Below are positions 4,633 through 27,435 of a DNA stretch of 64,000 nt, in pieces (within the stretch, counting starts at the first letter, position 1; every line of letters begins with the position of its first letter). The notes under the pieces were generated by a model. The model was not told where the DNA came from. It did not search any database and saw only the letters and a list, made by a program, of their open reading frames with translations. The DNA lies in the NCBI GenBank assembly GCA_963760615.1, contig CAVXDX010000008.1:97459-161458 (forward strand), in the 5' to 3' direction. The translations under genes were made by a program, and so were the position numbers. This DNA is from an uncultured Candidatus Micrarchaeota archaeon (GTDB taxonomy: Archaea; Micrarchaeota; Micrarchaeia; Burarchaeales; Fermentimicrarchaeaceae).

Positions 4633-5349
4633 CTAGGCTTCTGTTTTCTTCACATCCTCTTTTGTGGGCAGCTGTATGAATATCTCTCCAAAGAACTTCT
4701 CCTGAAAAACAGACAGCTTCCCGTCCTGGGCAAGATGCAGCACGGGCAGGAGGGTGTATATAATCTCCTTCCTGCTCCTCTCCTTCAGCAAGGATGAAAA
4801 TGTCACCAATCCTTTGGAGTCGGAGCATTTCTCCACCCTCTCGTAAATCTCCTTCATCCTCTGCGTTATGTCGTACTGGGGGATGTCTATCACCATCTTT
4901 TCCTTTATCACAGGCTTCTCCTGCTTCCTCCTCTGCTCCTCAAAGACTTCCTCCAAGGCTCCCATTAGCTCGTTCAACGTAACCTTCCTCTTCCTCGGTA
5001 TCCTTGTCCTCAGTGAAAGCATCGGTATCTCAACAGGCGCCTGCGCCTCGTCAATAAACGTCTGCTGCTCCACAACCTGCTCCTCCTCCTCAAATCGCAG
5101 GGCGTCGCTCTTGAAGCGCAGCAGTATCGAAGCGGCAAGGATGAGGTTTGCCGGCACCCGCAAGTCGAGCTTCTGGAGCTTCCTGACCCTCTCGAGGTAT
5201 TTGCTCGTTATATCCACAAGGTCAATATTCCAGGGGTCCAGCTTCTCGCTCACCACAAGGTCGAACAGCATCTCTCTCCAGGTGGGCTGCGCGACAAGCT
5301 TCTCCAAATCCACCTTTGCCTCTTTCTCCTCTGGTTTTTGCTCTTCCAT
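4633..5349 (-). CDS. scpA: segregation and condensation protein A (ScpA, kleisin)
   Basis: 238 aa; ...LDPWNIDLVDIT...LEL... ScpA N-terminal motif; N-terminus MEEQKPEE parallels ScpB. Confidence 0.75.
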   Translation of the reverse strand: MEEQKPEEKEAKVDLEKLVAQPTWREMLFDLVVSEKLDPWNIDLVDITSKYLERVRKLQKLDLRVPANLILAASILLRFKSDALRFEEEEQVVEQQTFIDEAQAPVEIPMLSLRTRIPRKRKVTLNELMGALEEVFEEQRRKQEKPVIKEKMVIDIPQYDITQRMKEIYERVEKCSDSKGLVTFSSLLKERSRKEIIYTLLPVLHLAQDGKLSVFQEKFFGEIFIQLPTKEDVKKTEA

Positions 5350-5989: not shown

Positions 5990-6140
5990 ACATTTATTTT
6001 TAATTCTAGTTCTAACGTGCAGGGAGATTAGAAAGAACCGCAAGGTTCCTCTCCTGAGCCAATATTAACCTTTCCAGTTCCGGCACATCTCGCACAAGAA
6101 ACAGCACTTTCATCTCGGGCATAAGCAATACCGGTGAAAA

Positions 6141-6329: not shown

Positions 6330-7193
6330 CTACCTTCGGGATATTCCCAAGCTTGTCGATTGCTCTTTCTTCAGCATCTTCGAGTTGAAATGGTCGTAAA
6401 TCCTTATCACAGTGTCTGCTGCCGAAGCGACCACCTGTTCATACTCCTCCCTGCTTATCTCGCACTTTTCATCTACTCTGTGCGGAAGGTGGAACACGAA
6501 CCCTTCTAGGGCTACCTCGTAATGCTCATACAGCTCCTTGGCTATTGTCTTGTCGTCAGGATAGTCAAATCTTCGCAGAGATGCCCTAAGCTTGTCAATC
6601 CTTCTCAGAGGCTCGGCTCCAGGTGAACTCTGCCAAAGAGTTACATTAATGCCGGGTATTTTCAAATACTCCTCAAAGACTTCCTTTGAGTCTGCTTCGA
6701 CGTAAACAATTGGGTTGCTTTTCAGCTCGGTAGGCTTCGAGTTGCTGTAAACTAAATAAGGAGCATGTGTTGCTGGGCTGTAGTGTATGTCTACAATGAC
6801 GCTTGCACGCTCATCCCTTGCAGTTCCTAGCATTTCATTGTAAACTAGCAGATTATCGAAATTCTCCTTTTTGAAGAGCCTGTCCTGTTTCCTCATGCCG
6901 TAATCCTTTCCTGTTTTCATCCAGTGCAGGTCTATGACATCAGATGCATGCGTAAACGATTTCAGTTCGCAGACCTTTATGTCCCTCTCACCCTTGATTT
7001 TTTGAATTCGTTTCGCAACATCTTCCGTGAACTGCCTCTCAGGAGTGTGGGCGCCCCATGTCACGAGCATCGTTATGTATCTCCTTGCTTCCCCGACGTC
7101 CTGCGCGGCTTTCTCGAATTCTTTCTTATTCAGAATAGTCTTTATAGGTACGCTCCCCTCACCAGTCTCTGCGGTTTTGTGAATTCCATCCAT
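6330..7193 (-). CDS. hypothetical protein (cassette-promoter family member A)
   Basis: 287-aa ORF; start preceded by the conserved cassette CATGCCTGAATTATGCC...TATTTAAA. Confidence 0.5.
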   Translation of the reverse strand: MDGIHKTAETGEGSVPIKTILNKKEFEKAAQDVGEARRYITMLVTWGAHTPERQFTEDVAKRIQKIKGERDIKVCELKSFTHASDVIDLHWMKTGKDYGMRKQDRLFKKENFDNLLVYNEMLGTARDERASVIVDIHYSPATHAPYLVYSNSKPTELKSNPIVYVEADSKEVFEEYLKIPGINVTLWQSSPGAEPLRRIDKLRASLRRFDYPDDKTIAKELYEHYEVALEGFVFHLPHRVDEKCEISREEYEQVVASAADTVIRIYDHFNSKMLKKEQSTSLGISRR

Positions 7194-7268
7194 GCCTGAA
7201 TTATGCCTTTTCTTCTATTTAAACCCTAGAGAAGTCTATAAAGATTGTTATAAGGTAACTCCGGGAAC

Positions 7269-8279
7269 CTATCGCTCGACCAGCTCAACCCTCAAAAGTT
7301 TATTTTTTATGAACGAGTCCAAACGATCGGAAAGCTCACCTCCCAATCCGCTCGAGCTCATCCCAGACATTTTCAGCTCCTCTTGAAGCTTCCAATCTTC
7401 TAAATGCCCCCGCCCTCCATTTGCCCGGTCCAGCTCCACAATCAGCTTTTCTATCTCTCCCAGCCCTCCCTCCCTCTCGAATACTATTTCGTGCCATTTA
7501 GCTTCAAAAATTCTGGATGCTTCCTCAGGAGTTATAAAGCCCCTCTGGTCTATCCTATGCTCGATTTCAATAAACGCTTCCCCTATGATGGAAGGAAGCT
7601 TGCGTATTTCAGCATCAAATTCCGCCCTCTTCCCGCGTTCATACTTTATTCTTGTCATTTTCAGCGACTCCTTCTTCGGAGGTGATTCCAGCAAATGTAT
7701 GTCGGTCAGCTGCCCCAGGCTTATCCCCTGGTCCTCCAGATTCTTTACATTTGTGGAGATGGTATCCAGTCGGGTCTTGTTGACGAACTTTACTATATCC
7801 GCCATGGGGATCCGCGTCTCTTCCTTCAGCATGTTTATTATATCCCTTTCAACCTCATCAAGAAAACTGCTGAATTCCGCAGGCGCTTTTGTCAGGAGGC
7901 CCTGCCGGGCGTACTCCGCTGGGTTCCTCCCTCGCGTTTCCAGAGCCATTATGTTAGCCTCAAGGTTAATCGGGGTTGCCCCTAGGAGCGACAGCGAGGG
8001 AATGGAGCATATCTTGTGCCTATCAAAAATCTGCATATTCTTCTCAATCTTATCCATTGAAGCGTGCTTTAGAAGGTTGCTTATGCCCTCAACGGAAGCA
8101 CTCTCCACTCTGCTTTTTATTATCCGGATAGTCTCCCTGTCTCCCTTCGGGCGGCTGTCTGCTAAGGCCTTTGCATCACCCCAGCGCATGTAAAGGTCTC
8201 TCATCAGCCATTTTTCAAACTCCCCTCTGCTCATAAGCCTGGTATCCTTCCCTTCAGTTTTGACCTGCTCGGCGCACAT
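7269..8279 (-). CDS. hypothetical protein (cassette-promoter family member B)
   Basis: 336-aa ORF; cassette at 8280-8312; 14-bp palindrome at 8350-8363. Confidence 0.5.
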   Translation of the reverse strand: MCAEQVKTEGKDTRLMSRGEFEKWLMRDLYMRWGDAKALADSRPKGDRETIRIIKSRVESASVEGISNLLKHASMDKIEKNMQIFDRHKICSIPSLSLLGATPINLEANIMALETRGRNPAEYARQGLLTKAPAEFSSFLDEVERDIINMLKEETRIPMADIVKFVNKTRLDTISTNVKNLEDQGISLGQLTDIHLLESPPKKESLKMTRIKYERGKRAEFDAEIRKLPSIIGEAFIEIEHRIDQRGFITPEEASRIFEAKWHEIVFEREGGLGEIEKLIVELDRANGGRGHLEDWKLQEELKMSGMSSSGLGGELSDRLDSFIKNKLLRVELVER

Positions 8280-8349
8280 GGTTAGATTATGGCTTTTTCG
8301 ATATTTAAGCTTGTTCGATTAACACCGGCAAATCGTAACTTTCGGTTAT

Positions 8350-8363
8350 GTAACCATGGTTAC
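8350..8363. promoter_or_regulatory. perfect 14-bp palindrome GTAACCATGGTTAC upstream of ORF 7269..8279
   Basis: Exact palindrome; identical copy at 11628-11641. Confidence 0.6.
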
Positions 8364-8373
8364 ATCTAACCTC

Positions 8374-9426
8374 TCAACCCATCTTATCAGGAAGCTTCGG
8401 TGCCTTCCTTATCAGCTCGTCAATGTCGGTTATGCCTGTCTTAAACTTCTCCAGGCTTACCCCATACATCTTCACTTCCTTCTGGCCCACCACAACAAGA
8501 TTAGCCTCCTCTATTCCTAGAAACAAGCCCCTCGCTTTGCATCTCTTTTCAAAATCATCCAATCTCTCTTTACCAACTATTGCCTGCAATGTGTAATAAT
8601 CCCTGAAACCCTCGCTGTATCTCCTTGCCTTGCCTGCTTCGTCCCTCCATACGTCAAAATTCAAATATTTATCCTGAGGGTGATCATAGTCCCCCATCCC
8701 ATGTTTATGTTTATAAAATGCAGGGAGAGGAGTTGCTATTTTATCCATAAAACTTATAGCATAAAACGCCCTGACAAATGCATCCTTGCTGCTGAGCAAT
8801 TCAGTCTCGGCGAAAGTGGCTTTGCCTTCGCTGTACCTCTGCATAGCCCTCCGCAGCCTTTTTGCATCCTCACCCCCAGTACGGAATTTATGTAAATCCT
8901 CCCAAAAAAGAGCCAGCCTACGGGCACTTTCATCACGTATATGGTCCATCTCGTGCAATATTGCTCCAATCGACGAAATGGCGGATTCCTGCGCGTAATA
9001 CAGCACTCGGGTGCCGTCCTTCTCACGGCTTCCATGCCAATCTCCGTCATAAGATTTGAGTATTCTCAAACCTTGAGTTTCCATCCCATGATTTTTCTTT
9101 ACATACTCAAGTACCTGCATAAAGTGATCCCTTGACTGGATTGAGAGGGGCAAATTGTTCTCTTCAGCAAAGTGGTTATCAAGATACCGAACTAGCGGGC
9201 TGTTGCCTAACCGGAACATTCTGCCTGCCTTTATAGTCTCGCTGTATCTGTACGGATCCTTTATTTCCTTCAGCCTCTCTCTCGCCCAGTCTCCCATCCA
9301 CGCCTTTACTTCCTTTTGTTTCTCCAATGTGCCCAGCGCCTCATCAGCTATCTTCCAGCATTTTTCATAGAGTCCCTTGGCTTCTTCGCTTAAAACCAGC
9401 TCGCTTGACTTTGTAGCTGTTACCAT
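8374..9426 (-). CDS. HExxH zincin-like putative metallopeptidase (family member C)
   Basis: 350 aa; HEMDH followed 12 residues later by W, as in ORFs 10639..11589 and 45159..46139; cassette promoter. Confidence 0.5.
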   Translation of the reverse strand: MVTATKSSELVLSEEAKGLYEKCWKIADEALGTLEKQKEVKAWMGDWARERLKEIKDPYRYSETIKAGRMFRLGNSPLVRYLDNHFAEENNLPLSIQSRDHFMQVLEYVKKNHGMETQGLRILKSYDGDWHGSREKDGTRVLYYAQESAISSIGAILHEMDHIRDESARRLALFWEDLHKFRTGGEDAKRLRRAMQRYSEGKATFAETELLSSKDAFVRAFYAISFMDKIATPLPAFYKHKHGMGDYDHPQDKYLNFDVWRDEAGKARRYSEGFRDYYTLQAIVGKERLDDFEKRCKARGLFLGIEEANLVVVGQKEVKMYGVSLEKFKTGITDIDELIRKAPKLPDKMG

Positions 9427-9566
9427 GCCTAAATTATGCCTCTTTTGATATATTAAGATTACTTTGGAAGTTGGAATCTGAACTCAAAAGTAACTGCCCG
9501 CCCTTGGCATCCTGAACTGAAATGTTAATGCCCAGCTGTAGCTTTGAACTGAAATAGTCAAGAACC

Positions 9567-9701
9567 TTAATATACTCCTGAATAACAGACCACCTTTTTT
9601 ATCTTTCTAGTTCCAACCGTTCCGTCAGGAAGAATAAATGCCTTATATCTAGCCCTTCGCTTCTTTTCCCGCTTATAAATGCAACCTCTTGGAGCTTTCA
9701 T
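9567..9701 (-). CDS. small basic protein (44 aa)
   Basis: Not in the ORF track (under 60 aa); AGGTGGT Shine-Dalgarno 5 nt before ATG; MKAPRGCIYKREKKRRARYKAF...; co-directional downstream of the CxxCxxCC gene. Confidence 0.3.
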   Translation of the reverse strand: MKAPRGCIYKREKKRRARYKAFILPDGTVGTRKIKKVVCYSGVY

Positions 9702-9764
9702 TTATACCACCTCTATTTTTTAACTTCTTTTTTTGTTAATTCATCTTTTTGTTTCGTCATGATT

Positions 9765-10196
9765 TCACTCCCACAATTTTTTAATTACCTCATCAACAGT
9801 TATCGTTTCAAAAATTGGGCAGTCCTTTTTTTCAAAGTCTATTATCTTCTGTATCTTTTCCCTGTTCCATTTTTCTACTCCTCTGAATAAGTTATCTGGG
9901 CCGATAGCACAGAAATCAGGTCTTTCCTTATCCCAAACCGAGCAGTAATATTTTCCGTCTTTCATATATAGTTTAGCACACTCTTTTTTGAATGTTATCT
10001 GCTTCATGTCGAGTCCATCCCCAAATGTAAAAGGCGTGTCCTCTGTGATCTCTGTGATAATTGTATTATCGAGCATCCATCTAAACCTAAGTGCGGAGTC
10101 TAAAGTATCGTATAGAGTATATTCCTTGCAACACTTGGCACATCTTTGGCATATCTCCGAGTTTGCCAATTTGCTTTTGTTCCCGATTATTGTCAT
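9765..10196 (-). CDS. CxxCxxCC putative zinc/iron-chelating domain protein (YkgJ-like)
   Basis: 143 aa; CQRCAKCC motif plus additional Cys; start overlaps the TBP stop by 4 nt (ATGA). Confidence 0.55.
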   Translation of the reverse strand: MTIIGNKSKLANSEICQRCAKCCKEYTLYDTLDSALRFRWMLDNTIITEITEDTPFTFGDGLDMKQITFKKECAKLYMKDGKYYCSVWDKERPDFCAIGPDNLFRGVEKWNREKIQKIIDFEKKDCPIFETITVDEVIKKLWE

Positions 10197-10507
10197 CTGC
10201 TCACCTTCTTGGGGACTGGCAGAGGTTTTGTATGGGGAGCCAGTAGCTTTATCGCTCGCTCTAAGGCATACTTCACTTCTCTCTCATTCTTGCAGCCTGT
10301 GCATATTACCTTGCCGTTCTTGAAGAGCAGAAGAGATGCCTTTGGATCTTTGAACTTGAGTATTGCACCTGGGAACTGCTCTGGCTCATACTCCACATTC
10401 CTGATTTTGCTGGCAATAGTGTAAAGGTCAAGCTCCACTCCCAGATTGGCTGAAGCTACTATGTTCTCTATCTTGAACGATGGATCAATTGTAAGTTTCT
10501 TTGTCAA
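10193..10507 (-). CDS. single-repeat TATA-box-binding protein (one TBP domain only)
   Basis: 104 aa, TTG start; KIENIVASANLGVELDL...VEYEPEQFPGAI...DPKASLLLFKNGKVICTGCK is unmistakable TBP repeat sequence; no second repeat upstream or downstream. Confidence 0.7.
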   Translation of the reverse strand: MTKKLTIDPSFKIENIVASANLGVELDLYTIASKIRNVEYEPEQFPGAILKFKDPKASLLLFKNGKVICTGCKNEREVKYALERAIKLLAPHTKPLPVPKKVSR

Positions 10508-10638
10508 TGAAACACCTTCTCTGCCCCTTCCAGCCCATTTCTACTTAAAACCACCTGTTAGATGCCTCCCACCATACTCTCACTCATCAAATAGTTCTGT
10601 TCTGTAGTATATTAAGATTGCTTTGGCTTGAGAATAAG

Positions 10639-11589
10639 CTAAACCCTCCCTTCCTTCAGATCTCTCAGATACTCATCCGGATGATCTATGTGCCTCATGG
10701 TAAGAGGAGGATGTTTAATCGTGTATTTGATTGGGTTTTCCCCGGTTTTTTTCTCTATATACCCCAAGAACGCCATGCCCTTGGAATTTAGAGGTTGCTC
10801 CTCGTCCTCCTTAAGCAGTGTGGACTGTCTCATAGCCTTGTAGGAGTAACCAAATTTGCTTATAACCCGGTACCCGGCGTAGTATGCAATGCCCTCGTCG
10901 AAAGCTTGCCGGGCGTCAATCCCGTCTCTGACTATCTGCCATCTCGCCTCCATAGCTTCCTCATCCCCTGCTAGTTCAGAGTGGATTTTTACCTGCTCAC
11001 GTATGGAGTCTACAGACCAGTTCGCAACCTCAGGAATATTCTCCTTGATTGTTTGGTGCAGCTGCTCGTGGACAAAAGTGTTAAGGACAAGAAACCTCTC
11101 GATTCTCTTCCCTTCCTCGCTGTTTGGGCTGACTAGTTGCACTGCGCACTGCAGTCTAAACAGCTCTTCAATGTTGTCCCGCACAATATATGCGGTATTT
11201 TGCTCAGAGCTGAAAAAACCGGAAGTAGCTCTAAAAATGCTGGGCATATCGAAATCAACACCTTCCATTATCTCCCGTCTGAGCTCTTCGAGGAGAGTCT
11301 TATCGGACATGAACTTTTTGGATGTCGAGTAGAACTCTTCCTGCGTCATTTTCGTCGCTTCATCCCTGCTAATGAATTTTATGCTTATCTCGCCTTTTTT
11401 AAAACTCGTACTTACTTTCATCCCTGTTATGTCTTCGATACGTTTTGCAACTTGCATTATTTCGTATTTCGAAGGCACGTATAGCTCGGTTGGTGGAGAA
11501 GCAGATTCGCTATTAGTTTTATCTGCACCATGAAGTCTGATTATATGGTCCTTTATGTTCGTATCAGCTGATGGCTTAACAGTCCACAT
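10639..11589 (-). CDS. HExxH zincin-like putative metallopeptidase (family member D)
   Basis: 316 aa; HEQLH-x12-W and FDEGIAYYAGY (EGxAxY-like); cassette promoter at 11590-11622; palindrome at 11628-11641. Confidence 0.5.
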   Translation of the reverse strand: MWTVKPSADTNIKDHIIRLHGADKTNSESASPPTELYVPSKYEIMQVAKRIEDITGMKVSTSFKKGEISIKFISRDEATKMTQEEFYSTSKKFMSDKTLLEELRREIMEGVDFDMPSIFRATSGFFSSEQNTAYIVRDNIEELFRLQCAVQLVSPNSEEGKRIERFLVLNTFVHEQLHQTIKENIPEVANWSVDSIREQVKIHSELAGDEEAMEARWQIVRDGIDARQAFDEGIAYYAGYRVISKFGYSYKAMRQSTLLKEDEEQPLNSKGMAFLGYIEKKTGENPIKYTIKHPPLTMRHIDHPDEYLRDLKEGRV

Positions 11590-11622
11590 GCTGAGATTAT
11601 GCCTCTTTCAATATTTAAGCTT
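11590..11622 (-). promoter_or_regulatory. conserved promoter cassette (TATA + GGCATAATCTnRRC) directly preceding ATG
   Basis: Coding strand CTTAAATATTGAAAGAGGCATAATCTCAGC-ATG; near-identical at 7194-7232, 8280-8312, 9427-9462, 46140-46172; weaker at 13986-14020 and 30207-30243. Confidence 0.6.
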
Positions 11623-11627
11623 GCTTT

Positions 11628-11641
11628 GTAACCATGGTTAC
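11628..11641. promoter_or_regulatory. perfect 14-bp palindrome GTAACCATGGTTAC abutting the TATA box of ORF 10639..11589
   Basis: Exact palindrome 8 nt upstream of TATA (ATATTTAAG at 11611-11619). Confidence 0.6.
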
Positions 11642-11721
11642 ATTCTCCGCCAAATCTCATCTTCGCTTTGGTATTAGCCTGTTTCTCGGCAGATTTAAAT
11701 ATCAGAAATGGCGTAATTTAA

Positions 11722-12186
11722 GTGCTGAGATTTATGGTAACAACTGTGATGGATGAACCAAAAATGCGGGTAGAAATGCAAAGGAAATACTTTAAAGAAA
11801 AAGATTACAAAGTGGTAGAAGTTCCTAGAAGCAGGCTGGGTGAACTGTCCCACATATGGAGCCTGCTGCCAAGGATCGGGTATGACGAAGGCAAACCTCA
11901 GCCCAGTATGATTCCTGTCGGTTTTGTAAAAAAAGAAGACGAAAAATGGCATCTTTTGGGTGTAGTAAAGCATCAGGATGTATTGCATCATGTACCAGGA
12001 TCATCGGATTTGTTTGTAGAACCGCTAACAGGGAAATTAAGCATAACTCCAAAACCCCAAGACGATATAACACGAAATATGGTTGAGGTTCTTGTTGCAA
12101 GGCTTCCAGAGCCATTAAAAACCAAGCTGTATGAAGCAGCCCTAAAGCATGCGGATTTAGGCAGGGATATGTTCGTAAAGGATTAG
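11722..12186 (+). CDS. hypothetical protein
   Basis: 154-aa ORF. Confidence 0.4.
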   Translation: MLRFMVTTVMDEPKMRVEMQRKYFKEKDYKVVEVPRSRLGELSHIWSLLPRIGYDEGKPQPSMIPVGFVKKEDEKWHLLGVVKHQDVLHHVPGSSDLFVEPLTGKLSITPKPQDDITRNMVEVLVARLPEPLKTKLYEAALKHADLGRDMFVKD

Positions 12187-22502: not shown

Positions 22503-23836
22503 GTGACATGCTCCACCCCTAAAGGGTGTGGGCTTCCTGCTTCACAGACGTTGCTACTGCAACATCTCTCTCCTTTTGCAAGGAATTGCAGGCGTTACTT
22601 CCCCCTTGCCCAGGGGTAGCTCTCATGAGTATATTGCGTGCAGCATTCAAGTCTCTGTCTATTAACAAACCACAATTGGGGCAGGCATATATCCTGTCTC
22701 CGAGACTCAAGTCGTCCCTGATGTTTCCGCACCTGCTGCACATCTTTGAGGTATTTTCAGGGTCTACAAACACCACTCTGCATCCAGCTCCCTCCGCCTT
22801 GTATGCAAGCATGTTTGCAAACATACTCCATCCTGCATCATTGATGAACTTGCCGTAATGCTGCTCTGACATTTCTTTTGAGGCAAGTCTTTCTGATGCT
22901 ATGAAGGAATAATCATTCACCAAATCAGTTGTTGCCTTATGTAAGAAGTCTCTTCTTGTGTTGGCCACCTTCTCATGCAGTTTTGCTACTCTTACCTTTG
23001 CCTTCTTTCTGTTGCCGCTTCCTTTCTTTTTCTTCGAGAACTTTCTTTGTATGAAGGCAAGCCTATCCTCATGCTTCATGAGGTGTCTTGGGTTTTTTAT
23101 CATTTTGCCATTTGAGAGAGTTGCAAATGTCTTCAATCCCAGGTCTATACCTACTGCCTCTCCCCCGTTTTCTCGTGGAATCTTTCCAAGTGTCTCAACA
23201 GTGAAAATAGCAAACCATTTTCCTGAAGACTCTCTTTTCAGAGTCAGGGTTTTGATTCTGCCTTTTATCTCTCTGTGCTTATTTACTGCAATCTCACCAA
23301 AAGGAGTCACTGTGAGTTTCTTATCCAGAGAGAAGCCAGACCCATACTGCGGATAGTACAAGCTCTTCATCCTGTCAATTGATTTGAAGCGAGGGAAACC
23401 ACATTCCACTCCTTTTCTTCTCAGCTTGAAAACTCTCGTTACTGAATTATAAACTCTATGTGCAATCTCCTGCTGGGTTTGGGAATAGAGACCACACTCT
23501 TTTACCATCAGCTGTAGCGTATTCTTAGTTGGGAAGTAGCCAAAGTCTTTGTAGGTTTGTTTGCAGTGCTCCAGAAGCTCATTCCACATGTTCTTTGCTA
23601 TCCAAATATGCTGAAACATCTCCTTCTCCTGCTTCTTTGAGGGATATATCCTGAATTTGTAGGCTCTCATAGACGTTATTTATGTCTATTTTTCCCTTTA
23701 TAAACCTCTGGGAGGGGTAACTTTCCAGTGAAAGTTATATATACTGGAAGAGCTAAATTTTCCCTTATGGTTCGCTTTCATCCCACCCTTAAAAGGTGTG
23801 GGATTTCCCGCTCACGTTGTTAAATAATAGAATGTA
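22503..23836 (-). mobile_element. IS200/IS605-family TnpB-only insertion sequence (IS1341-like, non-autonomous)
   Basis: tnpB ORF flanked by two similar ~40-nt hairpin segments in the same orientation (22511-22553 and 23772-23815); TTAC on the tnpB strand next to the left end (~23833); no tnpA. Confidence 0.6.
22519..23670 (-). CDS. tnpB: TnpB (IS605 OrfB) RNA-guided endonuclease
   Basis: 383 aa; MRAYKFRIYP N-terminus, RuvC-like blocks, C-terminal CSRCG...CPNCG zinc finger. Confidence 0.85.
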   Translation of the reverse strand: MRAYKFRIYPSKKQEKEMFQHIWIAKNMWNELLEHCKQTYKDFGYFPTKNTLQLMVKECGLYSQTQQEIAHRVYNSVTRVFKLRRKGVECGFPRFKSIDRMKSLYYPQYGSGFSLDKKLTVTPFGEIAVNKHREIKGRIKTLTLKRESSGKWFAIFTVETLGKIPRENGGEAVGIDLGLKTFATLSNGKMIKNPRHLMKHEDRLAFIQRKFSKKKKGSGNRKKAKVRVAKLHEKVANTRRDFLHKATTDLVNDYSFIASERLASKEMSEQHYGKFINDAGWSMFANMLAYKAEGAGCRVVFVDPENTSKMCSRCGNIRDDLSLGDRIYACPNCGLLIDRDLNAARNILMRATPGQGGSNACNSLQKERDVAVATSVKQEAHTL

Positions 23837-27329: not shown

Positions 27330-27345
27330 TGCAACCACGAAAGAG

Positions 27346-27435
27346 CGGGCCCGGCGGGATTTGAACCCGCGACTCCCTGGTTTCCTCATGCGAGTTTAAA
27401 AGCCAGGTACTCTGGCCAAGCTGAGTTACGGGCCC
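27346..27435 (-). tRNA. tRNA-Lys (anticodon TTT) with 15-nt canonical intron
   Basis: Acceptor GGGCCCG/CGGGCCC, anticodon stem CCTGG/CCAGG, loop CTTTTA|A interrupted after position 37 by AACTCGCATGAGGAA, T-arm GCGGG-TTCAAAT-CCCGC. Confidence 0.75.

Follow-up and report, generated by a model that had tools for sequence, protein, structure and literature searches.

An accessory single-repeat TATA-binding protein gene of a Micrarchaeota archaeon and its relatives in the housekeeping TBP locus

A 64-kb stretch of a contig from an uncultured Candidatus Micrarchaeota archaeon (CAVXDX010000008.1; this whole stretch is henceforth called the window) encodes a complete, stand-alone protein with a single repeat of the TATA-binding protein (TBP). 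TBP is the standard example of a pseudo-dimer that arose by internal duplication, and we refer to its one-repeat version as single-repeat TBP (sTBP). The window gene is an accessory extra copy, and sequence comparisons indicate that it is no one-off, being a member of a large Micrarchaeota family, many of whose other members occupy the housekeeping TBP locus. Taking the evidence together, we consider it probable that the window sTBP is a functional half-saddle that dimerizes with itself or with a housekeeping sTBP, binds TATA DNA and recruits transcription factor B (TFB), serving as an alternative TBP subunit.

Sequence analysis of the window protein

Comparison of the window protein with the Pfam TBP profile (PF00352) recovered a significant match (E 4.2e-30) that pairs residues 10-90 with profile positions 1-83 of 85 and covers the whole repeat, at a score of 103.8 bits against a gathering cut-off of 22.9. 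A phmmer search of the PDB likewise returned 35 TBP sequences, headed by the TBP of Methanocaldococcus jannaschii (2Z8U; E 2.9e-43), and aligned the window protein near-equally to repeats 1 and 2 of the M. jannaschii, Sulfolobus acidocaldarius and Pyrococcus woesei TBPs. Its identity to single repeats of the M. jannaschii, Sulfolobus and P. woesei proteins is about 41-55%, the values of 41-42% for the P. woesei repeats having been obtained with BLASTP and the higher ones for M. jannaschii and Sulfolobus by eye from the phmmer alignments. When aligned with repeat 2 of P. woesei TBP (1AIS), F45 and F62 fall on both of its phenylalanine positions, and N15, V17, T70 and the stirrup EYEPEQFPG also find their counterparts; all these residues are invariant in 20 sTBPs. 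The slightly longer stretch VEYEPEQFPG is found unchanged in repeat 2 of both the P. woesei and the M. jannaschii TBPs. In the published structures of TBP-DNA and TBP-TFB-DNA complexes the phenylalanine pair kinks the DNA, the asparagine, valine and threonine contact the minor groove, and the stirrup contacts TFB/TFIIB.

The open reading frame (ORF) is closed on its 5' side by an in-frame stop about 15 nt before the TTG start, and the gap of 131 nt that separates it from the upstream gene (10639..11589) leaves no room for a second TBP repeat. Concordantly, tblastn searches with five TBPs detected no second repeat in the 64-kb window, the flanks of the window gene included. The protein is thus distinguished from canonical TBPs, which have two tandem repeats in one polypeptide, by having one repeat in its 104 residues. 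This also affects its annotation: it falls under the whole-protein cut-offs (181-347 bits) of all ten NCBIfam TBP models, with a best score of 96.3 bits, and sTBPs in general score 84-99 bits against these models, which probably accounts for their 'hypothetical' labels at NCBI. The initial annotation had proposed a complete one-repeat TBP with its own TTG start and stop and no second repeat nearby. The above analysis bears this out, the residues that it quoted (KIENIVAS...VEYEPEQFPGAI...LLLFKNGKVICTGCK) being exactly those of the translated ORF, and the possibility raised there that a profile search might expose the TBP match as spurious is dispelled by the Pfam and PDB results.

A large family of single-repeat TBPs under purifying selection

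A search of 5.8 billion proteins with the window sTBP as query recovered, among the best 120 matches that were inspected, at least 19 complete single-repeat proteins of 99-120 aa with 69-92% identity to it. Several matches are 90-94% identical over their full length, and homologs of 102-104 aa stand at about 92%; the window protein itself has no exact entry in the assembly index. When a member of a more distant sTBP clade was used as query, its best 120 matches included about 100 single-repeat clusters (86-130 aa), on contigs of up to 452 kb. Altogether, complete sTBPs of 86-130 aa were recovered in more than 100 protein clusters. The named members of these clusters are from Micrarchaeota, and at NCBI most are labeled 'hypothetical protein' and some 'partial'. 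A library of representatives at 50% identity proved of little use for estimating the size of the family, since scores sum over two repeats and its list consisted mostly of two-repeat TBPs. The same library also contained TBP-domain proteins of 272-702 aa with three or four repeat matches (P0222, P0223, P0227 and P0273).

A parallel scan of contigs from one genome per species (GTDB representatives) was used to fetch the best 80 loci, which are cited below by numbers such as L006. About half of these, corresponding to some 40 species-level genomes, have a one-repeat ORF complete with start and stop codons of its own, and the rest have a two-repeat TBP. The ratio of nonsynonymous to synonymous substitution rates (dN/dS, Nei-Gojobori) is 0.01-0.03 among the sTBPs of the housekeeping locus, 0.12-0.30 inside the clade of the window gene and 0.05-0.09 between the two groups; the sTBP genes are under purifying selection.

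The housekeeping slot and the accessory copies

The TBP gene of Micrarchaeota has a characteristic position, or slot, divergent from a conserved L21e-RpoF(Rpb4)-DUF655(-KsgA) operon, and this holds for one-repeat and two-repeat genes alike, the slot being occupied by 33 single-repeat and 43 two-repeat genes among the fetched loci. As both versions share the same slot, the sTBP is the positional ortholog of the housekeeping TBP in many Micrarchaeota. None of the assemblies among the best 80 loci shows both a single-repeat and a two-repeat TBP, and one contig of 1.30 Mb (JBAZVF01) has an sTBP alone; slot sTBPs are also carried by JAVZHX01 (on a 542-kb contig), JACQQD01 and JAPLWT01. The slot sTBP is probably the general transcription factor itself in many Micrarchaeota, and might be the only TBP of those species. 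The divergent region of about 75 nt that separates the slot sTBP from the L21e operon contains two TATA-like boxes that are perfect palindromes, TATTTAAATA and TTTATAAA (L002, 9927-10000; also L010-L012).

The window gene has a different setting: no gene of the L21e-RpoF-DUF655 operon is present in the 64-kb window, and the sTBP instead lies between a gene for a 316-aa protein and one for a CxxCxxCC protein. In neighbor-joining (NJ) trees it forms a clade with the copies from L001, L006 (two copies), L008 (two copies) and L009 (71% bootstrap), and all seven members of this clade lie outside the slot. This out-of-slot position marks the window gene as a paralog and not the slot ortholog. The coexistence of both types is seen in the 'Candidatus Micrarchaeota' metagenome-assembled genome JAPLWT01, where two accessory copies lie together on a single contig (L008) and a slot copy lies on a different one (L011), and to which window positions 9535-10517 are 97% identical at the DNA level. 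Between the genomes with accessory copies a module of about 420 bp comprising promoter, leader and ORF (window 10205-10625) is 94-97% identical amidst unrelated flanks. In the window, L006 and L008 the sTBP is followed by the overlapping CxxCxxCC gene, and this gene pair is conserved at 97% nucleotide identity in L006 and L008. Relative to the slot copies, the predicted DNA-binding strands of the accessory copies are near-unchanged, with the conservative substitutions F52L and V67I only, and the changes characteristic of the accessory clade lie in the segment modeled as helix H2 (Y80, L82, R84), the loop TGCKNE and the C-terminal tail.

Evolution of the TBP repeats in Micrarchaeota

The two-repeat TBPs of Micrarchaeota (loci L013-L073) are themselves unusual in that their two repeats are 55-79% identical to each other, as against 43-56% in reference archaea, with synonymous differences between the repeats (pS) of 0.34-0.69, mostly under saturation. 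In the reference archaea N-terminal repeats are nearer to other N-terminal repeats and C-terminal repeats to other C-terminal repeats, whereas the N-terminal, C-terminal and single repeats of Micrarchaeota and Diapherotrites are equidistant from the reference N- and C-terminal repeats. In the NJ bootstrap analysis all the Micrarchaeota and Diapherotrites repeats, whether N-terminal, C-terminal or single, form one clade (88%), in no replicate do the N- and the C-terminal repeats each form a group of their own (0%), one clade of sTBPs is supported at 100%, and in some proteins the own N- and C-terminal repeats pair with each other (74%, 51% and 28%). The loss of the N-versus-C signature in these two-repeat TBPs suggests either recent re-duplication and fusion or gene conversion, and the overall pattern would fit recurrent fusions of genes with one repeat as well as gene conversion from one repeat to the other. 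Given that the sTBPs are placed inside the clade of that lineage's N- and C-terminal repeats, the single-repeat state is probably derived within the Micrarchaeota/Diapherotrites lineage and not an unbroken relic. One two-repeat TBP gene (L048, JAZDMN010000049.1, about 6025-6030) has an in-frame stop in strand S1 of its repeat 2 (NIVA*AN), which may reflect a sequencing error, recent pseudogenization or a gene that is just splitting in two.

Structure and proposed mode of action

The AlphaFold2 (AF2) monomer model of the window sTBP has a predicted local distance difference test score (pLDDT) of 64 and contains helix H1, four strands and helix H2, with strand S1 (residues 1-21) unplaced at pLDDT below 50. 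It superposes on TBP structures at a template-modeling (TM) score of 0.65 and a root-mean-square deviation of 1.3 Å, the ranges being 0.65-0.67 and 1.2-2 Å. The unplaced S1 strand might, weakly, be taken as compatible with a need for a partner. A further clue is provided by the closest two-repeat TBPs, each of whose repeats is 71-76% identical to the window sTBP, with near-identical S1 strands and identical stirrups, and in which the stretch linking the repeats looks like an sTBP tail followed by an sTBP head. This likeness of both fused repeats to the sTBP furnishes a domain-fusion (Rosetta-stone) argument for two sTBP-like units forming a normal saddle, and dimerization of the sTBP into such a saddle is accordingly likely on comparative grounds.

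With one repeat per polypeptide (S1-H1-S2-S3-S4-S5-H2), an sTBP would constitute half of the TBP saddle, so that a functional saddle needs an intermolecular dimer, which in the case of a homodimer would be perfectly two-fold symmetric. Two subunits would be expected to pair through strand S1 and helix H2 of each and so restore the saddle of ten strands, in which the phenylalanine pair of each subunit (F45, F62) would kink one end of the TATA box and each EYEPEQ stirrup would be able to dock TFB. In archaea promoter polarity is set by the contacts of TFB with the B recognition element (BRE). Hence, a symmetric TBP dimer is mechanistically acceptable in these organisms, and the polarity of sTBP-dependent promoters would likewise stem from the TFB-BRE contacts. 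The window sTBP, whose DNA-binding face is identical to that of the slot copy, would then most likely act as an alternative subunit, pairing either with itself or with the housekeeping sTBP; the heterodimer is as plausible as the homodimer given the status of the window gene as an accessory paralog. It would be expressed from a cassette promoter common to a lineage-specific gene cluster and co-transcribed with the CxxCxxCC gene. The binding of TATA DNA and TFB, and a regulatory role of the accessory copy, are what we infer from the sequence.

Genomic context, promoter and translation signals

The coordinates of the features of the locus are collected in Table 1. The block GGTGTTTC, the AGGTG motif 5 nt ahead of the start and the context of the start codon are invariant in all seven aligned upstream regions of accessory sTBPs, which use TTG or GTG as start. 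With about 100 nt separating the promoter element from the TTG, the window gene is predicted to have a leader of about 75 nt, or 75-80 nt on the assumption that transcription starts about 25 nt past the TATA element. Within the leader there is a five-codon mini upstream ORF, ATGGTGGGAGGCATCTAA (10558-10575, minus strand), which lines up with the start ATGs of the neighboring cassette genes and looks like a remnant of the original cassette ATG.

Table 1. Features of the sTBP locus in the window
Feature	Position	Strand	Remarks
Accessory sTBP coding sequence	10193..10507	-	104 aa, TTG start, TGA stop; ORF call, PF00352, PDB matches
Shine-Dalgarno AGGTG	10513..10517	-	5 nt before the TTG start of the sTBP
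Predicted 5' leader of the sTBP	10508..10607	-	94% nucleotide identity in L009 and L001; aligned with cassette promoters
BRE/TATA-like promoter element CCAAAGCAATCTTAATATA	10608..10626	-	also present at 9449-9467, upstream of the 350-aa gene (repeat family D2)
Promoter cassette of the upstream 316-aa gene	11585..11623	-	direct-repeat family D1, alignment; one of four copies
Other copies of the ~39-nt cassette	7189-7227, 8275-8313, 9422-9460	-	direct-repeat family D1
Perfect palindrome TGTAACCATGGTTACAT / (A)TGTAACCATGGTTACA(T), 16-18 bp	11627..11643 and 8348-8365		repeat families D3/I1
CxxCxxCC (PF03692) putative metal-binding protein, downstream gene	9765..10196	-	143 aa; overlaps the sTBP stop by ATGA

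The promoter element CCAAAGCAATCTTAATATA also precedes the accessory sTBP copies and neighboring genes in L001, L006, L008 and L009. A part of it, AATCTTAATATA, is present at 10608-10619 and 9449-9460 (both minus strand), in agreement with the earlier proposal that the sTBP shares a promoter element with its neighbors; at up to one mismatch it has three matches as against 0.25 expected, a count that was reached in none of 100 shuffles. Four consecutive minus-strand genes, encoding proteins of 287 aa, 336 aa (with a winged helix-turn-helix domain), 350 aa and 316 aa, each start with a cassette of about 39 nt that reaches the ATG, has the consensus AAGC-AAkCTTAA(T)ATAT ... CATAATyTAGGC-ATG, and is closely related to CCAAAGCAATCTTAATATA. 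Such cassettes reaching the ATG imply leaderless or near-leaderless transcripts of one regulon for these four genes. No family assignment was found for the proteins of 287, 336, 350 and 316 aa, apart from the winged helix-turn-helix domain of the 336-aa protein (HTH_24). The 350-aa and 316-aa proteins, which returned no Pfam, NCBIfam or PHROG match, each have an HExxH motif (HEMDH, gene at 8374-9426; HEQLH, gene at 10639-11589; both minus strand); they were considered as paralogs of each other on this account, yet have no significant mutual similarity.

The palindrome TGTAACCATGGTTACA is situated immediately upstream of the BRE/TATA element of two of the window cassette genes, and an identical palindrome abuts the TATA/promoter region of the second sTBP copies in L006 (about 6940-6960) and L008 (about 4640-4660). 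Its recurrence at both kinds of genes suggests a common operator, and it is probably the shared operator of the cluster; a candidate for its regulator is the HTH_24 protein of 336 aa encoded next to it. On the other side of the sTBP the ATGA overlap with the CxxCxxCC gene, which the initial annotation had correctly described as unrelated to TBP, indicates that the two genes are probably co-transcribed and translationally coupled. A further ORF of 154 aa (11722-12186) was considered as a diverged TBP-like partner and rejected: the similarity detected was marginal (tblastn E 0.05, BLASTP 2e-4), with no Pfam match and an hhalign probability of 0.2% against the sTBP profile.

The window is a segment of an archaeal chromosome, with genes for aIF5B, PyrF, ScpA/B, Trm5, LeuRS and aEF1A and five predicted tRNA genes, one of them with unassigned anticodon. 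Its GC content dips to 0.43-0.44 at 8001-12000, where the cassette-promoter cluster with the sTBP is located, as against 0.46-0.50 over most of the remainder. The tRNA with unassigned anticodon is a 91-nt ARAGORN prediction, possibly containing an intron (27345-27435, minus strand), and elsewhere in the window there is an IS605 OrfB/TnpB-type gene (PF01385 and PF07282) at 22519-23670 (minus strand).

Alternative explanations

Several observations weigh against a role of the window sTBP as a functional alternative subunit. The AF2 monomer is only moderately confident and does not model strand S1, and an AF2 model of a tandem sTBP-sTBP construct, computed from the single sequence without an alignment as a proxy for the homodimer, was uninformative (pLDDT 47.5). 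The accessory clade is less constrained than the slot copies and its genes have TTG or GTG starts and long leaders. A canonical two-repeat TBP may be present elsewhere in sTBP-bearing genomes, the scan having covered the best 80 loci. Lastly, the gene sits in a low-GC (0.43-0.44), rearranging cluster of unassigned genes, a setting also compatible with a role in regulation, as a decoy or in association with an element. The first of these options, namely that the accessory sTBP is a regulator that does not itself initiate transcription, would see it as a decoy or modulator sequestering TFB via the stirrup, or as forming non-productive or specificity-altering heterodimers with the housekeeping sTBP. 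Its status as an extra copy under relaxed constraint, the concentration of clade-specific substitutions mainly in helix H2 and the adjacent loop and not in the DNA-binding strands, the cassette promoter, which in relatives is accompanied by a palindromic operator, and the differences in copy number and context between close genomes are all consistent with such a role. However, all DNA-contact and stirrup residues are kept under selection, which would be needless in a pure decoy; we regard this option as rather unlikely. It is quite improbable that the sTBP is instead the cargo of a mobile or integrated element that redirects host transcription with a TBP subunit of its own: while the near-identity of the promoter and gene module (94-97% over about 420 bp) in genomes with differing flanks, the lower GC content, the surrounding genes without family assignment under one common promoter cassette, and the integrase and toxin-antitoxin-like genes near relatives would suit mobility, a viral origin was rejected as there are no relatives among 2.9 million viral contigs of IMG/VR and no PHROG matches for any gene of the cluster, the window has the core chromosomal genes listed above on its flanks, and no terminal repeats or att-like sites were detected beside the module.

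The TBP fold is used in other contexts, such as the N-terminal domain of RNase HIII, and single-domain proteins of unknown role, like the diverged versions of Thermococcales, do exist (PMC3597702), which raises the question of whether the window protein was recruited to a function other than initiation. This is very hard to reconcile with its identity of about 41-55% to genuine TBP repeats, with its full set of signature residues, and with the occupation of the housekeeping TBP slot by its closest paralogs. As for a pseudogene fragment, or an assembly or deletion artifact, of a two-repeat TBP gene, one might point to the two repeats of canonical TBPs, the non-ATG start of the window gene, the 'hypothetical' or 'partial' labels of its relatives at NCBI and its scores under the cut-off of every NCBIfam TBP model. 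But a complete ORF with conserved Shine-Dalgarno sequence, start, stop and tail is found at seven independent accessory loci and at dozens of slot loci, which come from separate samples assembled with different programs, dN/dS is 0.01-0.3, no remnant of a repeat flanks the window gene, and tandem repeats with 68-80% nucleotide identity would not collapse in assembly. This renders the explanation scarcely credible and disposes of the deletion artifact that the initial annotation had itself named as a potential refutation.

Implications

The family-wide pattern of sTBPs is of more interest than the single window gene, in that many Micrarchaeota may initiate transcription by means of two half-proteins joined in a dimer, an arrangement long put forward for the ancestral factor. 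To our knowledge the presumed homodimeric ancestor of TBP has never been available for experiment. A conserved natural half-TBP in a housekeeping locus would allow a direct test of whether a symmetric dimer bends TATA DNA, and the family would also permit tests of whether polarity is set solely by the TFB-BRE contacts, and of why fusion of the repeats was favored. A broader picture, which we hold tentatively and as somewhat short of an even prospect, is that in a large part of Micrarchaeota a homodimeric, symmetric sTBP is the only TBP for all initiation, that the lineage has repeatedly switched between one- and two-repeat states, and that some lineages, the one of the window among them, have added accessory half-TBPs whose homo- and heterodimers provide alternative promoter recognition. 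The accessory copy would add possible combinatorial control inside the TBP dimer itself. There is also a practical aspect: as sTBPs fall under the NCBIfam thresholds and are labeled 'hypothetical', annotation-based genome surveys may score Micrarchaeota as lacking TBP.

Comparison with known TBP systems

No description of single-repeat TBPs from Micrarchaeota or DPANN was found in the literature covered (open-access papers and bioRxiv preprints); a survey of DPANN recorded TBP in about 89% of the genomes (PMC8407392). Of the known systems, the canonical archaeal TBPs (2Z8U; P. woesei 1AIS/1PCZ; S. acidocaldarius 1MP9) share with the window sTBP the same Pfam domain, phenylalanine pair, minor-groove residues and acidic stirrup, and sTBPs related to it fill the same genomic slot as the two-repeat TBPs of other Micrarchaeota; the difference lies in the two repeats per polypeptide of the former and the one of the latter.

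Single TBP-domain proteins have been reported from Halobacterium (TbpA, near the full-length TBPs) and from Thermococcales (diverged, of unknown function) (PMC3597702). The monopartite proteins of Thermococcales (e.g. P. furiosus NP_578195; PMC3597702, Table 3) are, like the sTBPs, stand-alone proteins, of about 91-97 aa, with one predicted TBP fold, but by the description in that study they are highly diverged and occur beside a normal TBP, whereas the window sTBP is a near-canonical repeat. Halobacterium TbpA (Brindefalk et al. 2013, PMC3597702) is likewise a single-domain protein, very similar to its lineage's full-length TBPs, and an extra copy beside other TBP genes. However, TbpA is plasmid-borne and the main Halobacterium TBPs have two repeats, whereas sTBPs also fill the housekeeping locus across many species and, unlike TbpA, constitute a large family that is ancient within its phylum and under strong purifying selection; given the taxonomy, orthology between the two is unlikely. 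The multiple Halobacterium TBPs (tbpA-F) have been considered as a means of selecting between alternative promoters (PMC2121645), and resemble the present case in being paralogous general factors in one genome. Here, however, the paralogs are half-proteins, and could generate combinatorial diversity within the TBP dimer and not only through the pairing of TBP with TFB.

The initial annotation had, in addition, likened the window protein to the hypothetical ancestral homodimeric TBP. The comparison holds for the architecture, which is that postulated for the ancestor prior to the duplication, with one repeat and a need for dimerization. It probably does not extend to descent: in the repeat trees the sTBPs look secondarily derived or re-set, which points to a return to the single-repeat condition and not to its uninterrupted retention.

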